From a virus, in UHGV virus genome UHGV-0275551: a DNA stretch of 64,000 nucleotides; one strand, written 5' to 3'. Within the stretch, counting starts at the first letter, position 1. Each line of letters opens with the position of its first letter. Of the stretch, positions 17,046-37,698 are shown piece by piece. The notes beneath the pieces are model-generated. The model saw only the letters and a program-made list of their open reading frames with translations. It did no database searches and was not told where the DNA came from. The position numbers and the translations under genes were made by a program.

Positions 17046-18662
17046 TCAACGTCTAAGCCCCTCATATGGGTTTCCTCTCACTAAATCTGTGTGAGCACCC
17101 ATTGATGGTGGCTTGAATAATTTAACTTCGTTAAGACTGTTGAAAGCATCACTGGTAGCATCCACTTGGTCATCTTTAGTTTTACCATCACCACAAAAGC
17201 CTTCAAGCTCTTGAAAGTAAGCTTCATTCCAACTACCTCTCAAGACTTTTACAAGTCCAGCTTCAGAAGCAGCAGAAAATCCCGCAAAGCGGGTAACTTT
17301 ATCTTTATTTGTTGGTTTGGCTCTTGCACGATAACCTTTCTCGGCAAGTTTCCTGATGAGGGATGTTGCGTAGGATTTACCAGCAGCGCCTGGGTCTTGA
17401 GGGATAAAAATACCAGTTCGCTTACCGTCACTTTCAGCAGTCAAATTAATTTGTGTTTCGACTCCAGAGGGTCTATCTCTAAATCTTACTACATCAATGA
17501 TATAATAGCAACCGTCTTTTTTAGATTTACCCATCTTAACACCTGCTGTCCAGTCTGGATTAGGGTTAATCTCAGATGGTAAAGTTGCTGCTAAGTCCCA
17601 TGCTCTAACATCAAATACATCTTCTGGGAGTGAATCAACAATTTCACACCATTGTCTTTGCCAATAGTTTGAACCTTCTGCACGAGCCTTCCAGTTACCG
17701 AAACGAAGTCTTGCAACGTTTACAGGGGTGTTGTTTTCCAACTTACCACGGTACTTAGGCTCTAAGAAGTCAAGGATTGGGTTATCATCAATCGTACCAG
17801 AGATAAAGGTGTATGTTTGAGGAATCTCAAGAGGGAACATTTCAAGAATCTTGTCTCTCTCCCAATCAGAAACCATCACACCATCGTTCATTACATACCA
17901 ACGAATACGACCACACTTTTCAGGGTCTGGATAACCTTCTTCATCTAAGAATGGCTCTACCCAATCGTAAATAAAGTGGTCTCTGTCTGGGTTCATAGAA
18001 ATCTTCATGTATGAATCACCTTCAGCACCAGAACGTAGACGGGTTTGTAGGTATGAAATCTGTGAAGCAGAGAAGTGTGTACCTTCGTCAAAGTAAATAG
18101 CTGAGTATTCAATACCCTGATGACCTTCAGCGTGCTTTTCAAGTTCTAGGTAGGTAAACTTGATAGTTGCCCCAGAAGGGAATGTGATAGTCATTTTCTG
18201 CTCGTGAGGAATCCCACCAAACTTACCAAATAGTTTCTTTGCAGCAGGCCATAAACCACCTTGTAGCTGTGTTGTATTTCGACGGAAATATACAGCATTA
18301 TAGTTAGGGTCTTCAATAAATCTTAAAGAGTCCATTAACAATGCAGCAGTTTTACCAGCACCAGCAGCACCACCATAAAGAACCAAGTCAGCATTAGTGT
18401 TTAAAAAGACCTCTTGAGAACCCGGCTGAGGGGCTACATAATTCTTATCAGTCATCAATTTAAAGATAAGGCGAACTTGGTCTGGTGTGTATCTTAATAA
18501 AGTCAGAATTTGAGTTGGAAGGAATTTAGAGGGGTCTTTACCGAATGATTTGATAATTTCTTTTACTTCATCAGAAAGCCCCAACTCTCCAGCTAGGACT
18601 TTCCTAACATCTTCCACTCGCTTCTGCTTAACAGCATTTAAGTCCATTAAGCACCTCCGCAA
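17046..18662 (-). CDS. terminase large subunit
   Basis: 538 aa; Walker A LYGGAAGAGKT near N terminus, nuclease-like C half. Confidence 0.8.
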   Translation of the reverse strand: MRRCLMDLNAVKQKRVEDVRKVLAGELGLSDEVKEIIKSFGKDPSKFLPTQILTLLRYTPDQVRLIFKLMTDKNYVAPQPGSQEVFLNTNADLVLYGGAAGAGKTAALLMDSLRFIEDPNYNAVYFRRNTTQLQGGLWPAAKKLFGKFGGIPHEQKMTITFPSGATIKFTYLELEKHAEGHQGIEYSAIYFDEGTHFSASQISYLQTRLRSGAEGDSYMKISMNPDRDHFIYDWVEPFLDEEGYPDPEKCGRIRWYVMNDGVMVSDWERDKILEMFPLEIPQTYTFISGTIDDNPILDFLEPKYRGKLENNTPVNVARLRFGNWKARAEGSNYWQRQWCEIVDSLPEDVFDVRAWDLAATLPSEINPNPDWTAGVKMGKSKKDGCYYIIDVVRFRDRPSGVETQINLTAESDGKRTGIFIPQDPGAAGKSYATSLIRKLAEKGYRARAKPTNKDKVTRFAGFSAASEAGLVKVLRGSWNEAYFQELEGFCGDGKTKDDQVDATSDAFNSLNEVKLFKPPSMGAHTDLVRGNPYEGLRR

Positions 18663-18668
18663 ATAGAA

Positions 18669-18869
18669 TTATTCAGAGTCTGTAGCAGTCTCTTCTTTCT
18701 TAACTTCGAACTTTGCATCAACAGCATCAAGAAGTGCATCCATAGATGCTTCTTTAATATCAATACCTGTTGCTACAGACAATCTGTCTGCAATTGCCAT
18801 GATAGTATTCTGCATAAATTCTAGCTTTTTATTAGCTTCATAAAGTTCTTTATAAACGGTCTCGCTCAT
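18669..18869 (-). CDS. hypothetical small protein upstream of terminase
   Basis: 66-aa track ORF; acidic. Confidence 0.3.
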   Translation of the reverse strand: MSETVYKELYEANKKLEFMQNTIMAIADRLSVATGIDIKEASMDALLDAVDAKFEVKKEETATDSE

Positions 18870-22246: not shown

Positions 22247-22588
22247 TTAAATCTTTAAGCTAAGTTCAGTCTTAGACTTGATATCTTTAGCTTTGTAGAT
22301 GATGACTTTATCAAGTGGTTCAATGTAAACAGCTAAGTAATCAACTTGAGAGTTATCAAAATTCATTATTCTATTTTCATTCTTGTTAGAACGAACTCTT
22401 TTCAGTTGCACTCTCCAAAGTTCACCTCTTTTGACTGAGGTTGATTTTACCTCAACAGTCTCAATCAAACCATCTTTGTGAACTAGAAAGTCATACTTTG
22501 CATTATCTGTAGCTGGTGAATACACTTCATAACCTCTTTTGAGGAAAGCTAATTGTGTAGCAATTTCACCTACTGAACCTTTCTTCAT
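22247..22588 (-). CDS. PD-(D/E)XK-type nuclease-like protein, putative
   Basis: track ORF 22247..22768 shortened to ATG 22588 (strong AGGTGG RBS; longer form overlaps tRNA-Ser); motif YDFLVHKDG...IETVEVKS fits a D...E.K nuclease core. Confidence 0.4.
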   Translation of the reverse strand: MKKGSVGEIATQLAFLKRGYEVYSPATDNAKYDFLVHKDGLIETVEVKSTSVKRGELWRVQLKRVRSNKNENRIMNFDNSQVDYLAVYIEPLDKVIIYKAKDIKSKTELSLKI

Positions 22589-22611
22589 AATCACCACCTT
22601 AAAAATCATTT

Positions 22612-22698
22612 TGGCAGAGAGTGCAGGAGTCGAACCCGTACCGTTTCCAGCAGCACCAGTTTTCAAGGCTGGTTGGTCTCCGTTGACCGCCACTCTCT
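22612..22698 (-). tRNA. tRNA-Ser (anticodon TGA), class II
   Basis: 87 nt; acceptor agagagt/actctct perfect; sense anticodon loop CTTGAAA; long variable arm. Confidence 0.55.
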
Positions 22699-22711
22699 CC
22701 GAAACAATCTT

Positions 22712-22794
22712 TGGCATGGGACGGAGGAGTTGAACCCCTTTGAAACGGTTTTGGAGGCCGTTGCTCATGCCTTAGAGTCTTAACATCGTCCCAT
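22712..22794 (-). tRNA. tRNA with anticodon CCA (Trp?), atypical 83 nt
   Basis: perfect acceptor atgggac/gtcccat, G73, sense anticodon arm ACGGC-CTCCAAA-ACCGT, but the D-region is about 7 nt too long. Confidence 0.35.
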
Positions 22795-32814: not shown

Positions 32815-33237
32815 ATGAAAGAGCTTATTGGTAAAAGATTGACAGTTTACTGCTCTAAAACAAAGAAACCACTCACTTCTGTGAAGGTTTTTGATGTTGA
32901 CACCACTGGTGTAGAGTACCCAATCCAATGCACAATAATTACTCCATTCAATGCAGATGATATGGATTTTAAAGAGTGTGAAGTGATATCTTTTAATGCT
33001 GATGGGTATTGGAGAGGTAAGTTAAACAAGCAATCAAAAGATTTTGATATGCAAATCCTTATCAATGAAGGCTATATCTGTGTAAAAGATATCCTCGTAG
33101 AAGCCTATGAAGAAGGTATAATTGATATTGTGCATGATGTTGAAAAAGCTTTAAAGCTTGTTATGCCGCATTTAGAATCTGGAAAGCTGACTTTAGAGAT
33201 GCTTAATAGGGTTATTCGGAGAGCTTATGAAAATTAA
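32815..33237 (+). CDS. hypothetical protein
   Basis: 140-aa track ORF. Confidence 0.4.
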   Translation: MKELIGKRLTVYCSKTKKPLTSVKVFDVDTTGVEYPIQCTIITPFNADDMDFKECEVISFNADGYWRGKLNKQSKDFDMQILINEGYICVKDILVEAYEEGIIDIVHDVEKALKLVMPHLESGKLTLEMLNRVIRRAYEN

Positions 33238-33691
33238 AGAAACAGTTCGAAAAGCAATGCTTACCAATTCAACTAAAGATGAAATGTACAAAGAAATCTG
33301 TGATGAGTTGAATTGCTCAAGACATGCTGCTAAGGTTCTTGTACATTGTTTTATCTGGGAATGTTCAGAAGCTTATATGAGATTCAGAGCTTTTGAAAGT
33401 TCTAACTTACTAGGTGATGTAGAAGCTAGTGAGAAGCTAAAAGAACCTGAAGTGAAAACAGTCCCTAAAGTTGGTAATACATACCCTCTTAAAGACTTCA
33501 AGACTGGAAAGATTGTTGCAAAAGGTGTAGTAGAATCTGTTTATCATGATGGTAAATACTTACTTAAAATATTCGAGTATGACAGCCACTATACGCACTT
33601 ATGTGGGATTACATTCTTAGTAACAGAAGAAGACATTATTAGGAACAATAGCAACAAGTTTGCAGTACCAGCTTACCAAGTTTTACGATAG
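33227..33691 (+). CDS. hypothetical protein
   Basis: 154-aa track ORF; GGAGAG RBS. Confidence 0.4.
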   Translation: MKIKETVRKAMLTNSTKDEMYKEICDELNCSRHAAKVLVHCFIWECSEAYMRFRAFESSNLLGDVEASEKLKEPEVKTVPKVGNTYPLKDFKTGKIVAKGVVESVYHDGKYLLKIFEYDSHYTHLCGITFLVTEEDIIRNNSNKFAVPAYQVLR

Positions 33692-33704
33692 TGGTGTGAT
33701 AGAT

Positions 33705-34253
33705 ATGGAAAAAGATAACTTAAAAGACGTTGAAGGTAACTATCTAGTCCTTGACTGGAAGGATGTTCGGGAAGCACTCTCCGAAGAAAATCTTGACTGG
33801 TTCGAACAAATTATCTTTGCAGTACGGCATAACCGAGAAGTTGAAAATGGTAAAGAGCCACTTGAAGGAATCTTTGTAGAAAGGTCTTATCCGTTCTATG
33901 AAGACACTTTGCAGAAAGTTAAGATGTACTTTAAACAGAAGAACCGTAAAGTGGTCACTATGGTGTCTCTTGGTGGACAGAGTATGTCTGTGATGGAAGA
34001 TATCAACCCTAAGAGACCGAGTAAAGGTGTTTGTATAAAAATCACAGGACATGAAGAGTATATCTCAGTGGATGACTTTAGTGCATTCTGTAATGGGTCT
34101 TGTGTCTTTAATGGTTTTCACTATGATATCCGAGTATACCCAATCAAGGGAGATGATATCATGATGCAGATATTCGATAACAACAACGGATTCACTCATT
34201 TTTATCAGACAACTAAGTCATCCCTTAAAACAGTTCTGGAAACACTGATTTAA
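33705..34253 (+). CDS. hypothetical protein
   Basis: track ORF 33660..34253 re-started at first ATG (33705); the track start is a TTG inside the previous gene. Confidence 0.35.
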   Translation: MEKDNLKDVEGNYLVLDWKDVREALSEENLDWFEQIIFAVRHNREVENGKEPLEGIFVERSYPFYEDTLQKVKMYFKQKNRKVVTMVSLGGQSMSVMEDINPKRPSKGVCIKITGHEEYISVDDFSAFCNGSCVFNGFHYDIRVYPIKGDDIMMQIFDNNNGFTHFYQTTKSSLKTVLETLI

Positions 34254-34262
34254 AATATCTTA

Positions 34263-34293
34263 AGAGCCTCCTTAATCGGGGGCTTTTTAATTT
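34263..34293 (+). terminator. terminator candidate closing the plus-strand cluster
   Basis: gagcctcc-ttaatc-gggggct imperfect hairpin followed by TTTTTAATTTTT. Confidence 0.45.
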
Positions 34294-34940
34294 TTATAAA
34301 ATTTTATCGGTTGTCCCAACCTCTGGGTCACCATCATATGTGAATAAAATATCTATCCTTCTTAACAACCTCCTTAGTCTTACTCTCTATATAGTTATAT
34401 AGTACTATATAGTATCTTAGTAACTATCTAGTGGTCTTAATAGCCCCCCTGTATAAGCCTTCTAACTAGCCCTTTAATAAGCCCTCTAAACACTCTTCTA
34501 ACAAGCCTTCTTAACAACCTATACAATCACCTTAACCATCTCTCTATACCCTCTTAGAAGCTCCTATACACCTCTTAATCTCTATGTCAGCTATGATACC
34601 CTCTATAGATGTTCACTAGGTACTACTAAGCCTCTATATAGACTGTTTTAACAAACTTAACAGGAATATCTTCACAGACCTTATCTCACAAGGTCTAACA
34701 CGGTACTAACAAGGTATCTTATAAGCCTGTTTCTACCTGTATTTTTAAAAGACTGTATAGGTAATTATTCAGAATTTTAAAATTTTTATAAAATAAGACT
34801 ATCAAGTCATTTTTTAGGGTCTTTGAAGGAACTCAAAAATATCTGTAGAAGATGTATATCTGCTTGGTAGCCCTTAACAACTCCCTTACAAGTACTTTGC
34901 AAAATTTTAAAATATCCTTAACAATCTCTTAACAGTTCTC

Positions 34941-35013
34941 ACAAGCTCTTAACAACTCTTCAAAGCTCTTAACAACTCTTCAAAGCTCTTAACAACTCTT
35001 CAAAGCTCTTAAC
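34941..35013. repeat. tandem direct repeat, 20-bp unit x 3.6
   Basis: aagctcttaacaactcttca repeated head-to-tail three times plus a partial copy. Confidence 0.8.
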
Positions 35014-35895
35014 AGATTCTTAACAGAACTAACAAGGATGTAACAGTTTCTTAACAGTTGATACATAGGCTTTACAGAATCTTAACAGATGACTAACAAG
35101 AGCTAACAAGTTAATTTTTAAGAGTTATTTTGTAGGGATAATTAACAAGTTCCTAACAAGTGTTTAATCTTTTTAACAAGCTATTAACATGGTCACTATC
35201 TCTTTTCTTATCGTTCCCTTTCCCTCTTAGTGATTCTCTAAATAGCCCTCTTAAAAGCTCTCTATAGCTCCTTGTAAGCTCTTTTAAGTCTCTTCCTAGT
35301 AATTACACCCCAACTATACAGACACCTCTTTATAGGGCTTTACAGAGGCTTTAAAGGCTATGCTAAAGACTCTTACAAGGCTTTTACGTGGTCTTAACAG
35401 AGATTTAACAAGGGGCTAACAAGTCTCTAACAAGTGCCTTAAAAGCATAACTATGTAGGGATTGTTAAGAAATTGTTAAGAAAATGTTAAGGGGGCTAGC
35501 ATTTACGTAACTTTATAGCCTCTTTTACGTAACTTTTGAGTAACTTTATAGCCCCTATAACATACTTTAAAGGAACTACCAAGCCCTTTTTAGTAGTTCA
35601 CAAGAATACTAACGAGATGATAAAGCTTACACCCTTATAAGATTCTTCTAAGGCTCTGGGAAGCTCTATAAAGGGCTTTTTAGAGTGGGTTAATATGATT
35701 GCTTAAGTTAGGTTGATAAGGCTGTTATAGAGCGTTATAGAGCGTTTAAGGGGTTGCCCTTCCCTTTCGGGTTATGGGCTTATATTTAAGTTGATTTGAT
35801 AAAAGGTTATAGAGTAGACTATAGAGTTATTGCTTTTAAGGTCTGATAAGATTCTGGAAAGGGAAGGGAAAGGGTTGTATAAGGATTTGATAGAC

Positions 35896-35920
35896 GTAAA
35901 AAAGCCCCATTTAAGGGGCT
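35896..35920 (-). terminator. rho-independent terminator at the distal end of the small-gene array
   Basis: agcccc-atttaa-ggggct hairpin followed on the minus strand by TTTTTTAC. Confidence 0.55.
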
Positions 35921-35958
35921 GTAAAGGTATCTGGGGCTATTTAGCCCCGTTGCGTCGA

Positions 35959-36207
35959 TTAGTTGTAGCCTTGTTTGCTGTAGTATAGAGAGACAATCAA
36001 GTCACCCCAATAATGGTAGTGAGATTCCTCGTTTATGGCTTCTTTTACGGCATCTTTCCAGAAGTCATCAGTAGGGTTATAATCTGGTATCACCTGCTGA
36101 ATCAGCATTTTGATAAGGTCAAAGGTGTTATCTGTTCCACCGATATCGAATTTTGCATCAAGTTTGTGGCAGCCATAAGCATTAACAGTTACGCGGATAG
36201 TTGACAT
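35959..36207 (-). CDS. hypothetical small protein (cassette gene, family-A leader)
   Basis: 82-aa track ORF; ATG directly follows the conserved SD of leader 36208-36274. Confidence 0.5.
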   Translation of the reverse strand: MSTIRVTVNAYGCHKLDAKFDIGGTDNTFDLIKMLIQQVIPDYNPTDDFWKDAVKEAINEESHYHYWGDLIVSLYYSKQGYN

Positions 36208-36274
36208 AATTTAGATTCTCCAGTTTAGGACTTTGTTTAGTGGGAAGGTCATTCCCTCCCCGTTGATTAGTAAT
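36208..36274 (-). repeat. family-A leader element (5'UTR hairpin + SD)
   Basis: sense actaatcaacGGGGAGGGAATGACCTTCCCCactaa...cctaaactGGAGAatctaaATG; 8-bp stem incl. G:U. Confidence 0.6.
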
Positions 36275-36299
36275 TTACTGCATATTGGCGTAGGTTGCA
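36271..36299 (-). promoter_or_regulatory. sigma70-like promoter for 35959..36207
   Basis: -35 TTGCAA, 17-bp spacer, -10 TAAATT; the TAA of the -10 is the stop codon of the upstream gene. Confidence 0.45.
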
Positions 36300-36538
36300 A
36301 GCCTTTTTTCGTTGTATTTTGTCAGAATTTCACAAGATAGAACATCGTACATTGTAACCGCTTTGCTTTTGTCGAGGTCAAAAAAGCCAAATGCTTTACC
36401 ATCTTTGAATCCGACAACTTCGTAAGATTCTTTAATGATTTCACCATTGAACAAATCACTTTCGATACGGTGAAACAACGCTACGTCTTCTTTGTTAGTT
36501 GCAATCTGCAATAGTGTGGTTAATTCTACGTGTTCCAT
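36275..36538 (-). CDS. hypothetical small protein (cassette gene, family-A leader)
   Basis: track ORF 36275..36643 shortened to the ATG at 36538 that follows the conserved SD; the upstream extension reads through the leader. Confidence 0.5.
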   Translation of the reverse strand: MEHVELTTLLQIATNKEDVALFHRIESDLFNGEIIKESYEVVGFKDGKAFGFFDLDKSKAVTMYDVLSCEILTKYNEKRLATYANMQ

Positions 36539-36605
36539 TTTTGAATCTCCTAGTTTAAGGACTTTACTTAGTGGGAAGGTTAATCCCTCCCCGTTGATTG
36601 ACAAT
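36539..36605 (-). repeat. family-A leader element
   Basis: gaatctcctagtttaaggactttacttagtgggaaggttaatccctccccgttgatt on plus strand. Confidence 0.6.
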
Positions 36606-36631
36606 TTACAGACTTTTGATTGTCTCGTCAA
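36603..36631 (-). promoter_or_regulatory. sigma70-like promoter for 36275..36538
   Basis: -35 TTGACG, 17 bp, -10 TAAATT overlapping the stop of the 36606..37136 ORF. Confidence 0.45.
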
Positions 36632-37136
36632 TATCTTTTTCAATATCTTTTAAAGTTTTTTCTAAGTTCTTGATATTGAAGGATAAGCCTTCACCGAGAG
36701 TCTTAGAATAACCGCTAGGACGTAAATCATAAAGGCAAATTTGTTCTACATTGGAGAGGTTGACCATTTCACCGCTTACATCATAAGCTATTGATACGGT
36801 GTTTTCAGGGGCTTTATAGAACTTGTTAAGATTCTTGATAGAACGTTCATAAGCCATTTTATAACCATTTAAAAGGTCTTTAACGTGGTTGCGAACGTTT
36901 TTACACTCATCTAAGTAAATACCTAAGAATAGCGGTAACAGTTCTGCTACAGCTTGCATAAAGTGAGATACTACAACAGTAGAAACATTACGACGATGTA
37001 TATAATAAGCCCCGTTTTCTGATTTAGTGATAGTTGCAAAGTGTACACCGTTGCAACGAAATTCGAAGGTATCTTTAACGGGTTTAGTCATAACGTTAGA
37101 TGAGCGAATGTAGTTGATAGCTTGAAACTTGTTCAT
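36606..37136 (-). CDS. hypothetical protein (cassette gene, family-A leader)
   Basis: 176-aa track ORF; ATG follows conserved SD of leader 37137-37200. Confidence 0.55.
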   Translation of the reverse strand: MNKFQAINYIRSSNVMTKPVKDTFEFRCNGVHFATITKSENGAYYIHRRNVSTVVVSHFMQAVAELLPLFLGIYLDECKNVRNHVKDLLNGYKMAYERSIKNLNKFYKAPENTVSIAYDVSGEMVNLSNVEQICLYDLRPSGYSKTLGEGLSFNIKNLEKTLKDIEKDIDETIKSL

Positions 37137-37200
37137 TTTGAATCTCCTAGTTTAAGGACTTTACTTAGTGGGGAAGGTCATTCCCTCCCCGTTGATTAGT
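37137..37200 (-). repeat. family-A leader element
   Basis: gaatctcctagtttaaggactttacttagtggggaaggtcattccctccccgttgatt. Confidence 0.6.
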
Positions 37201-37229
37201 ACTATACTTGTTTTGATTTGCCTTTGCAA
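37201..37229 (-). promoter_or_regulatory. sigma70-like promoter for 36606..37136
   Basis: -35 TTGCAA, 17 bp, -10 TATAGT immediately upstream of the leader hairpin. Confidence 0.5.
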
Positions 37230-37356
37230 GCAATTTTTAAGTTTATCTATAAAGAATCTATTAAGTGAATCCCTTTTAGATAACCCCCTCGAACAAAGTT
37301 ACCAATGTCAATGGGTATTGTCAACACTTTTTTAAAAGTTTTTTGTAAGTTATTGA

Positions 37357-37698
37357 TTAACTTATGAATATTTTTTCAGGCTTTACATAGCTGATACGCT
37401 GACTTTTTAGCAGGTCATCCCAGATTAAAGCGGCAATATGTGCATAACCGGATTCACGTAAAAGCTTCATTGTTTTACTTCTCGTTTCAAAACGGCTTGC
37501 GTAGTATTCACTGTTCAAGGTCGTTTTATTCCCTTCGTTATCTGTATGGATGATTTGCATCACTTGAAAGGGGCTTACACCCTCGCCTTTGTTCCACTGT
37601 TCAAAGTATTTTAGGCACTGCATAGGTGACATCTTATCACTTACTTGAGTTGACCAAGATGAGCCAGCTTTATCGGTAATTACGGTTACATAAGCCAT
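37357..37698 (-). CDS. hypothetical protein (cassette gene, family-B leader)
   Basis: 113-aa track ORF; ATG follows conserved SD of leader 37699-37783. Confidence 0.5.
   Translation of the reverse strand: MAYVTVITDKAGSSWSTQVSDKMSPMQCLKYFEQWNKGEGVSPFQVMQIIHTDNEGNKTTLNSEYYASRFETRSKTMKLLRESGYAHIAALIWDDLLKSQRISYVKPEKIFIS

Follow-up and report, generated by a model that had tools for sequence, protein, structure and literature searches.

A 20-bp tandem repeat within a conserved, helically phased motif array in the predicted direct terminal repeat of a Felix O1-like phage

In the classical model of T7-type packaging, the direct terminal repeat (DTR) of the phage genome is duplicated by strand-displacement synthesis. 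The short repeats of T7 are said to have been described by Dunn and Studier in 1983, and our check of the sequence found CCTAAAG 13 times, in one orientation, around the 160-bp DTR (2 copies before it, 3 inside it, and 8 after it). We know of no established function for these T7 arrays, so that the analogy with T7 supplies no mechanism. Repeated elements also lie by the cleavage sites of other phages, as in the R-sites of lambda cosB with IHF, the pac hexamers of P1, and pacL/pacR of SPP1, and these terminase sites are believed to build up a nucleoprotein complex that is bent or wrapped, sometimes with a host architectural factor. Outside T7 and T3, the recognition of both DTR boundaries and the duplication of the repeat are poorly understood.

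Felix O1-like phages are widely used against Salmonella and E. coli in biocontrol and therapy and also to type these bacteria, and their DTRs are known. The DTR of UAB_Phi87 is 608 bp long according to Bal31 digestion and sequencing run-off (PMC4837284), and that of Ro111lw is 613 bp according to PhageTerm (PMC6454146). In the paper on the Felix O1 genome, short terminal repeats were deduced without being located, and the repeats of the region go unmentioned (PMC3185647). Our full-text literature search found no description of internal motif arrays in Felix O1-like DTRs, and the phased TTAACA/TGTTAA array, the mirror-image boundary signals, and the likeness to ArcA boxes reported here are apparently undescribed. 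Our starting point was a first-pass annotation of a 20-bp tandem repeat in the window, by which we mean the whole stretch of 64,000 nucleotides that was analyzed (UHGV virus genome UHGV-0275551).

The terminal repeat and its boundaries

The tandem repeat was located in an ORF-free stretch of 1,705 nt (34254 to 35958), in agreement with the non-coding location first assigned to it. This stretch separates two convergent gene blocks, the rightward one ending at 34253 and the leftward one at 35959, and a hidden gene was rejected, as no ORF of at least 40 aa lies inside 34254 to 35829. Among the 257 phage records that matched the stretch, 203 covered at least 80% of it. All of the matching records belonged to the Ounavirinae (Felixounavirus and allies), with 80 to 95% identity, bar one labelled Staphylococcus phage SA1. 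Judged by these matches, the window is the genome of a Felixounavirus, i.e., a Felix O1-like myovirus. The rightward gene block ends in an intrinsic-terminator-like hairpin composed of a 10-pair stem and a T-run (34262 to 34287, plus strand), at a place equivalent to that of a rho-independent terminator annotated in the ASO1A record, and hairpin prediction placed a second terminator-like structure at the end of the leftward block (35903 to 35920, minus strand). These two hairpins would insulate the region on its left and right sides. An RNA element was also considered and rejected, since Rfam at E ≤ 1 over 33000 to 37500 returned only a sub-threshold Phe_leader match, which fell on the terminator.

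Positions 34866 to 35496 of the window (631 bp) map to the DTRs of relatives and are present a single time in this assembly, which is circularly opened or permuted. The start and the end of the Ro111lw record are 100% identical over 613 bp, and this segment maps to window positions 35496 to 34866. The records of ZX4221, CRP22, NBEco004, and HP1 begin exactly at one of the two boundaries and have the second copy at the other end, such that five independent relatives' records agree on the DTR boundaries to the base. Moreover, the DTR annotations in Pr103Blw (581 bp) and in HP1, a Citrobacter phage of the genus Mooglevirus (570 bp), match exactly the segment that the boundary sequences delimit. 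The hallmarks of a DTR are thus found in relatives, namely, the same sequence at both ends (613 bp in Ro111lw and 444 bp in Erwinia phage M7) and fixed, unpermuted boundaries. From the boundaries mapped in relatives, we infer that the DTR of the window phage spans 34866 to 35496, running from /GGTAGCCCTTAACA to ATGTTAAGGGGGC/ (slashes mark the boundaries), and the identity of the boundary sequences would place the physical ends of this phage at the same two positions.

The GenBank record of UAB_Phi87 is not opened at the physical ends and was usable only via a test of SpeI fragments. In silico digestion from the mapped boundaries yielded terminal fragments of 4,431 and 2,751 bp, and the Bal31-sensitive SpeI fragments were reported as 4,322 and 2,819 bp (PMC4837284). 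Predicted and reported sizes differ by 68 to 109 bp, which supports the ends in this phage to within ~110 bp, not to the base. Overall, the DTRs of UAB_Phi87, Ro111lw, Pr103Blw, HP1, and M7 share with the window the same locus, boundary sequences, flanking genes, and terminators. They measure 608, 613, 581, 570, and 444 bp, respectively, and the window DTR reaches 631 bp because of a private 40-bp duplication (see below). For annotation, 34866 to 35496 can be labelled as the DTR and these genomes opened there.

The left junction signal, GATGTATATCTGCTT/GGTAGCCCTTAACA (34851 to 34879), has its boundary between 34865 and 34866, as given by the record ends of Ro111lw and NBEco004 and by the inner DTR boundaries of HP1 and Pr103Blw. 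At the right junction, the repeat scan and the junction alignment revealed an outer element just outside the DTR, composed of TAGCATTTACGTAAC and an array of ~4 copies of TTTACGTAACT (35497 to 35547). When one of them is reverse-complemented, the two junctions form imperfect inverted repeats (gtatatctgctt/GGTAGCCCTTAACA versus gtaaatgcta/GCCCCCTTAACA). Both Felixounavirus and Suspvirus show this relation, and the two ends of M7 each begin with TTAG.

We also evaluated the spacers that flank the DTR with repeat, motif, and skew scans. The spacer before the DTR (34288 to 34865, plus strand) contains CTCTAT five times, CTATATAG, AAGCCTTCTAAC five times, and 7 YTAACA sites, all on the plus strand, which is here much richer in C than in G. 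In the spacer after the DTR (35548 to 35902, minus strand), the motif families have the opposite orientation and the plus strand is richer in G than in C. CTCTAT, which belongs to a second motif family, is mirrored there by four copies of its reverse complement, ATAGAG, and the GC skew flips its sign at the right DTR boundary.

The motif array and the tandem repeat within it

A de novo search for enriched 6-mers in the DTR ranked TTAACA first (15 observed versus 0.35 expected, p ~1e-19). The core of the motif is TAACA (TGTTA on the other strand), usually in the form YTAACAR, and the DTR contains 25 such cores, a 19-fold enrichment. Of these, 22 share one orientation, the 3 at the right end are inverted, and 18 of the 25 read TGTTAA. 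The density of YTAACA is 38/kb in the DTR versus 2.0/kb window-wide, with 21 sites on the plus strand at 34875 to 35428, followed by 3 inverted sites at 35463 to 35491 that abut the right end. Among the sites of the whole non-coding region, 25/34 of the TAACA/TGTTA cores and 24/31 of the YTAACA sites fall within the DTR. The motif is found 3 to 5 nt from each DTR boundary, and each boundary signal contains it. The first-pass annotation had reported that CTTAACA-like motifs are dispersed around the repeat, and this was confirmed by our counts, with CTTAACA occurring 39 times in the window (17 ± 4 expected, and 0/100 shuffles reaching 39) and 17 of these occurrences lying in 34361 to 35491.

From left to right, the DTR contains an AT-rich box, TTTGCAAAATTTTAAAATATC (34896 to 34916), which is nearly invariant in 26 DTRs and recognizable in M7 as TTTGCAAAATCTTAACATATC, and just to its right the main array, array A (34915 to 35109, plus strand), where 13 YTAACA sites are spaced 9 to 11, 20, or 31 nt apart and which holds the tandem repeat. 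Array B (35139 to 35190, plus strand) is composed of 4 TAACA sites with spacings of 11, 20, and 11 nt. The central segment (35225 to 35390, plus strand) is devoid of TAACA and carries 10- to 12-nt repeats of the CTCTWWAWAG or CTTTAYAG type, which represent the second motif family. In array C (35391 to 35433, plus strand), TAACAG is followed by three TAACAAG at an exact spacing of 11 nt. Array D, which includes the right terminal element (35462 to 35496, minus strand), comprises the three inverted sites as TTGTTAAGAA-A-TTGTTAAGAA-A-ATGTTAAGGG, i.e., TGTTAA-N5-TGTTAA-N5-TGTTAA, followed by GGC at the boundary.

Neighboring sites are mostly 11 nt apart, and the next most common spacings are 20, 9 to 10, and 31 nt. 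With the private 40 bp removed, the sites of the plus strand were phase coherent at 10.4 bp over ~550 bp (R = 0.74, for a 99th percentile of 0.58 in the null and with 0/5,000 random placements reaching the observed value), which places them on one face of B-DNA. The best period was between 10.1 and 10.5 bp in 25/25 relatives. For conservation, we aligned 26 distinct DTR-equivalent segments of 567 to 638 bp taken from GenBank and IMG/VR. Invariant columns accounted for 86% of the motif cores versus 47% of the other DTR columns (Mann-Whitney p = 8e-15; 0/5,000 random block placements), a difference perhaps slightly inflated by the tendency of aligners to snap repeats onto each other. On the strength of this alignment, we consider that the motif columns are under purifying selection, and the array has the motif form expected of multi-copy protein-binding sites.

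Tandem Repeats Finder called a period of 20 at 34926 to 35014 (4.4 copies, 94% matches, score 148). The longest perfect run covers 72 nt (34943 to 35014, plus strand) and corresponds to 3.6 copies of the unit AAGCTCTTAACAACTCTTCA, as first described; the locus initially given (34941 to 35013) was right, with an immaterial offset of 1 to 2 nt. The repeat starts 77 nt from the left DTR boundary and is wholly within the DTR. Each unit was first read as containing two CTTAACA-like motifs. One is a true TTAACA, and the second is a degenerate half-unit, CTCTTCAAAG, that is not equal to it. A CRISPR identity is ruled out by the lack of spacers, as had been noted from the start.

At the position of the repeat, 25/25 aligned relatives have 1.4 to 1.7 copies versus 3.6 here, and the window contains a clean insertion of 40 bp, i.e., two units (aligned at 34943 to 34982). 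In each of the 58 GenBank records with full coverage of a 176-nt probe over the array, the matched span was shorter than the probe by exactly 40 bp, and IMG/VR yielded no exact match to two units. ASO1A/B appeared as a second expanded array, which proved to be an alignment artefact, as their DTR measures 591 bp and contains 1.4 copies. Since the relatives are all 40 bp shorter, the three perfect copies represent a recent duplication private to the window phage. The unit was nevertheless found once, with one mismatch (CTCTTAACAACTCTCCAAAG), in M7 (Kolesnikvirus), whose DTR has the same layout as that of the window and is otherwise barely alignable with it. Sites spaced by 20 bp number three in the relatives and four in M7. 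The 20-bp unit is old and its expansion is recent.

Two sister arrays also vary among relatives, in steps of whole 11-bp units: the CTAACAAGnnn array (array C) has ~1 to 6 copies, and the terminal TTGTTAAGAAA array (array D) has 2 to 5. The lengths of indels among DTRs cluster at 10 to 11, 21 to 23, 40, and 48 nt. Such phase-preserving sizes do not prove selection on phase, as the mechanics of slippage alone can produce whole-unit indels. DTR lengths of 567 to 638 bp in viable relatives indicate that copy-number variation is tolerated. The 40 bp added in the window phage amount to 3.85 helical turns, with the extra sites nearly in phase, and the two extra units are probably near-neutral or mildly modulatory. 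The 20-bp tandem repeat itself is thus an ordinary strain-specific duplication and, as a strain marker, of little consequence. In practice, the repeat arrays explain assembly breaks in the region for some genomes, and they constitute a small VNTR-like marker to tell isolates apart.

Proposed role of the array and alternative explanations

We propose, with a probability of about 0.6, that the tandem repeat is a duplication by slippage or unequal recombination within a conserved cis-acting array, of protein-binding type, that serves genome-end formation and packaging. The two extra units (+40 bp) would stem from a recent event of replication slippage or unequal recombination. At the concatemer junction, the array would act in cis as a nucleoprotein platform, on which a putative protein would bind head to tail along one helical face and coat or wrap the DTR. 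The single DTR copy would thereby be organized, with the terminase positioned to nick at the two mirror-image boundary signals, and the DTR would then be duplicated, as in T7-type packaging. The reader of the array may be an unrecognized phage protein or the host response regulator ArcA-P. Felix O1-like phages now offer base-precise, mirror-image boundary signals together with a conserved, helically phased array, both amenable to mutation.

The presumed cutter of the DTR is the large terminase subunit TerL, encoded at 17046 to 18662 on the minus strand (PHROG 979, E = 1e-233; Pfam Terminase_6N and Terminase_6C). We found no TerS or HTH match with PHROG and Pfam in the ORFs upstream of terL (66, 265, 185, 80, and 173 aa) and no small terminase in the curated annotation of Bas63. 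As TerS escapes sequence searches at times, these negative results lower the case for TerS sites and do not exclude it. Of the two features of pac- or cosB-like sites, the DTR thus displays repeated elements that adjoin the cleavage positions and lacks an identifiable small terminase. Searching more widely for a reader protein with PHROG and Pfam, in 10 flanking ORFs and 6 ORFs around terL, we obtained only terL, DUFs, and a PD-(D/E)XK domain, and the flanking ORFs had no Pfam match and only PHROGs of unknown function. The only annotated regulator in Bas63 is of the Cro/C1-type HTH class, whose members usually read inverted repeats. The PhageMaP knockout screen of Bas63 targeted genes, not the DTR region.

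The alternative that survives best, which we regard as possible yet on the unlikely side, is that the arrays are sites for ArcA-P, the anaerobic response regulator of the host, which the phage would employ to sense physiological state or to coat its AT-rich ends or counter their silencing, or would titrate with the arrays as a decoy. The role of ArcA-P could then be partly or wholly independent of the terminase, and this alternative overlaps with our preferred explanation if ArcA-P is the architectural factor. ArcA-P sites contain at least two 10-bp direct repeats, ATGTTAAAAA, at 11 bp centre to centre and with a TGTTA core, and extra repeats are found at 11 or 22 bp (PMC4173790). The consensus has been given as TGTTAA(N5)TGTTAA, the DNase-footprinted site of plasmid R1 is TGTTAAGTAAATGTTAA, and F-like plasmids already exploit ArcA-P (PMC7303359). 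Positions 35474 to 35490 of the window, TGTTAAGAAAATGTTAA, are identical to the R1 site at 16/17 positions and belong to a perfect TGTTAA-N5 x3. Same-strand TGTTA pairs at 11 bp number 12 in the DTR versus 1 in the other 62.3 kb, and those at 22 bp number 4 versus 0. Four phage genera, on hosts of four genera, carry the motif in unaltered form, as would fit a slowly evolving shared reader. The invariant positions also favor ArcA-P, as they are TAACA and not the CTTAA of a PmrA-type box. A reading of the array as PmrA/BasR boxes (YTTAAK-N5-YTTAAK) was rejected for this reason and because the would-be K base is always C.

Several observations stand against ArcA-P. Beyond the core, the 10-mers hardly exceed the random TGTTA cores of this AT-rich genome in their match to the ArcA consensus (means of 6.9/10 and 6.5/10, respectively); the best match was TTGTTAAAAA in array B (minus strand, 9/10). 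The part with the tandem repeat is spaced by 20 bp (7 pairs), not 22 bp, and 25 repeats are far above the two to five described for ArcA-P sites (PMC4173790, PMC7303359). Our literature search found no paper linking ArcA or anaerobiosis to Felix O1-like phages. A scan of IMG/VR for TGTTAA-N5 x3 in unrelated phages gave chance matches, and among the matches listed, dense arrays were present only in M7 and in a giant-virus contig. Routine culture of these phages is aerobic, a condition in which they grow well and ArcA is little phosphorylated, so that the site cannot be essential by way of ArcA-P. Compared with the ArcA-P sites of the icdA promoter and of P_Y in F-like plasmids, the array shares the TGTTA(A) core, the head-to-tail repeats, and the 11-bp distance between centres; it differs in having 25 repeats instead of 2 to 5, in not being at a promoter, in being partly spaced by 20 bp, and in the weak similarity of its flanks. 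ArcA-P as the reader is accordingly a specific but tentative lead, not a finding.

Extended to the subfamily, this lead would make the DTR of four Ounavirinae genera an ArcA-P landing pad of ~25 sites, acting as a redox-linked end factor or as an ArcA-P sink, a proposal that we consider doubtful. The redox signal of the host would then be employed as an architectural or regulatory factor at the genome ends, much as lambda uses IHF at cos, or the phage would soak up ArcA-P and reprogram host respiration during gut infection. The 20-bp tandem repeat would amount to a change in the copy number of ArcA boxes. If ArcA-P does read the array, the biology of the genome ends would be tied to the oxygen status of the host, which bears on the performance of these phages in the anaerobic gut.

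The first-pass annotation had described the repeat as iteron-like. The term holds as a description, given a conserved, oriented, and helically phased array of short motifs, and is unsupported in the sense of a replication origin, where an initiator would bind the repeats, open the adjacent AT-rich box, and start replication. We judge such an origin improbable. In the iterons of lambda ori, P1 oriR, R6K, and pSC101, direct repeats of ~20 bp are separated by integral helical turns and lie beside an AT-rich stretch. The window is similar in having ~20-bp repeats beside such a stretch: the 20-bp unit, present 3.6 times, falls within the iteron definition of at least three direct repeats of 17 to 22 bp at helical-turn spacing, and direct repeats at one or two helical turns adjoin the conserved 21-nt box at 34896 to 34916, although the whole region has a GC content of only 31 to 35%. 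The repeats are also located in a transcriptionally insulated region within which the GC skew changes sign. This flip is not diagnostic of an origin, as it coincides with the change in motif orientation at the DTR boundary and with convergent transcription. Unlike the origins listed above, the array has no cognate initiator gene and no DnaA boxes, is located in a terminal repeat, and has sites in the end-cleavage signals. Indeed, we found no DnaA-box or IHF consensus in the DTR and no recognizable Rep- or initiator-like gene beside it or in the curated annotation of Bas63. The replication genes of the phage, for a fused DNA primase/helicase and for a DNA polymerase of its own, are those of a T7-type replisome, and T7-type replisomes initiate from transcripts and are not known to use iteron-binding initiators. 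Furthermore, an origin leaves unexplained why the end-cleavage signals include the outermost sites, and relatives do not share the perfect tandem copies, which stem from the private 40-bp duplication.

Functionless slippage of simple sequence in junk DNA between two operons would be in line with perfect copies that are private to one phage and with a tolerated copy number (DTR length, 567 to 638 bp), and we hold it to be very improbable as an account of the locus. The motif cores are 86% invariant versus 47% for the spacers, all 26 phages keep a coherent phase over 550 bp, and a genus with an otherwise barely alignable DTR has preserved the unit and the architecture. It had been stated at the outset that a freely varying copy number without conservation of the unit would mark a simple slippage repeat. 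The copy number does vary, but the unit and the motif are strongly conserved across four genera, so that this is not a free-running slippage repeat. Functionless slippage is thus contradicted for the array and plausible for the two extra units.

Finally, the most remote of the explanations is that weak sigma-70 promoters or -35-like hexamers are clustered here and used for transcription or as a sink of RNA polymerase, since, despite TTAACA matching the -35 consensus TTGACA at 5/6 positions and several 9/12 promoter-like matches in the region, these matches are not clearly enriched (13 versus 8.8 ± 2.4 expected), none of them is strong inside the DTR, the repeated hexamers are not followed by a -10 element at 17 nt, Rfam gives no RNA above threshold, and no ORF is found downstream within the DTR.

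Comparison with known systems

Under the preferred reading, in which the array serves end formation and packaging, the terminase sites of lambda, P1, and SPP1 are comparable by anatomy only. These contain 3 to 7 repeated elements over 100 to 200 bp and come with an identified small terminase, whereas in the window phage ~25 sites extend over 630 bp and no small subunit is identifiable.

The concatemer junction of T7 and T3 is similar in that a short, oriented motif recurs, with over 10 copies, within and next to a short, exact DTR, and both T7 and the window phage are DTR-type packagers with a large terminase of the T4 or T7 type. The T7 arrays differ in being mostly outside the DTR, whereas that of the window is mostly inside. 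The T7 motif is unrelated in sequence, its spacing is ~13 nt or irregular versus 10.4 to 11 nt here, and T7 has no inverted copies at the far boundary, where the window has three at its right end. The likeness to T7-type junction arrays is therefore one of analogy, not of membership, and in context the locus is another case of short-repeat arrays at phage terminal repeats, a kind that is already known.

Layout of the region around the terminal repeat

We analyzed the noncoding region of 1.7 kb that surrounds the direct terminal repeat (DTR) and separates the convergent gene blocks. The two spacers that flank the DTR, at 34288-34865 and 35497-35902, share a single hexamer family in reversed orientation, CTCTAT being found five times on the plus strand of the former and ATAGAG four times in the latter. 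Their GC skews are also of opposite sign (-0.43 and +0.36, respectively). Since both the hexamers and the GC skew are opposed, the whole 1.7 kb is mirror-like, with its center near the right DTR boundary. Directly outside this boundary lies an array of about four copies of TTTACGTAACT (35502-35547), followed farther away by 2.3 copies of GTTATAGAGC (35724-35746). Both repeats belong to motif families distinct from TTAACA, the motif of the conserved site array that fills the DTR.

A reiterated intergenic cassette and two ORFs of interest

Evaluation of the intergenic sequences revealed a conserved cassette of ∼68 nt at 36208-36275, upstream of minus-strand genes, with further copies at ∼36539, 37135, 38035, 39258, 40124, and 41681 (at least seven occurrences, with copies 84 to 92% identical). 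Each copy is located directly 5' of one in a series of small minus-strand genes and includes a ribosome-binding site and a hairpin, GGGAAGG...CCCTCCCC. This repeated module probably serves as an early promoter, a terminator, or a 5'-UTR element.

The place directly upstream of terL, which encodes the large terminase subunit, is the usual location of the small terminase gene. A conserved minus-strand ORF of 66 aa (18669-18869; phrog_4397), for which we found no Pfam match, occupies this place and is by position a candidate for the small terminase subunit, although it is shorter than typical TerS proteins. In the tRNA-rich region, a minus-strand ORF of 173 aa (22247-22768) contains a PD-(D/E)XK endonuclease domain (PF11645, E = 1e-16) and may encode a homing-type nuclease.

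Terminal repeats of related phages

We then looked into the DTRs of related phages. Small palindromic insertions of 22 to 48 nt (GGGATTGGTA...TACCAATT / TTAATTGGTATTGTTACCAATCCC) are carried by those of L065, L064 (UAB_Phi87), L050, L115, and L133 (SUSP2), at sites that differ between relatives; an exact-string search with six diagnostic substrings found no copy in the window. In appearance, these insertions resemble a very small, palindromic mobile element of the MITE type.

Felix O1-like DTR sequence was also found, with 92% identity, at positions 136313-136434 of GU169904.1, a record labeled "Staphylococcus phage SA1," whose assembly is probably chimeric or contaminated.

For UAB_Phi87, the published genome size is 87,669 bp, with a DTR of 608 bp (PMC4837284). 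The GenBank record has 87,603 bp and opens in the tRNA region, and the DTR defined by boundary sequences is 614 bp, versus the published 608 bp. The two SpeI fragments from the genome ends add up to 7,141 bp as reported, compared with 7,182 bp as predicted.
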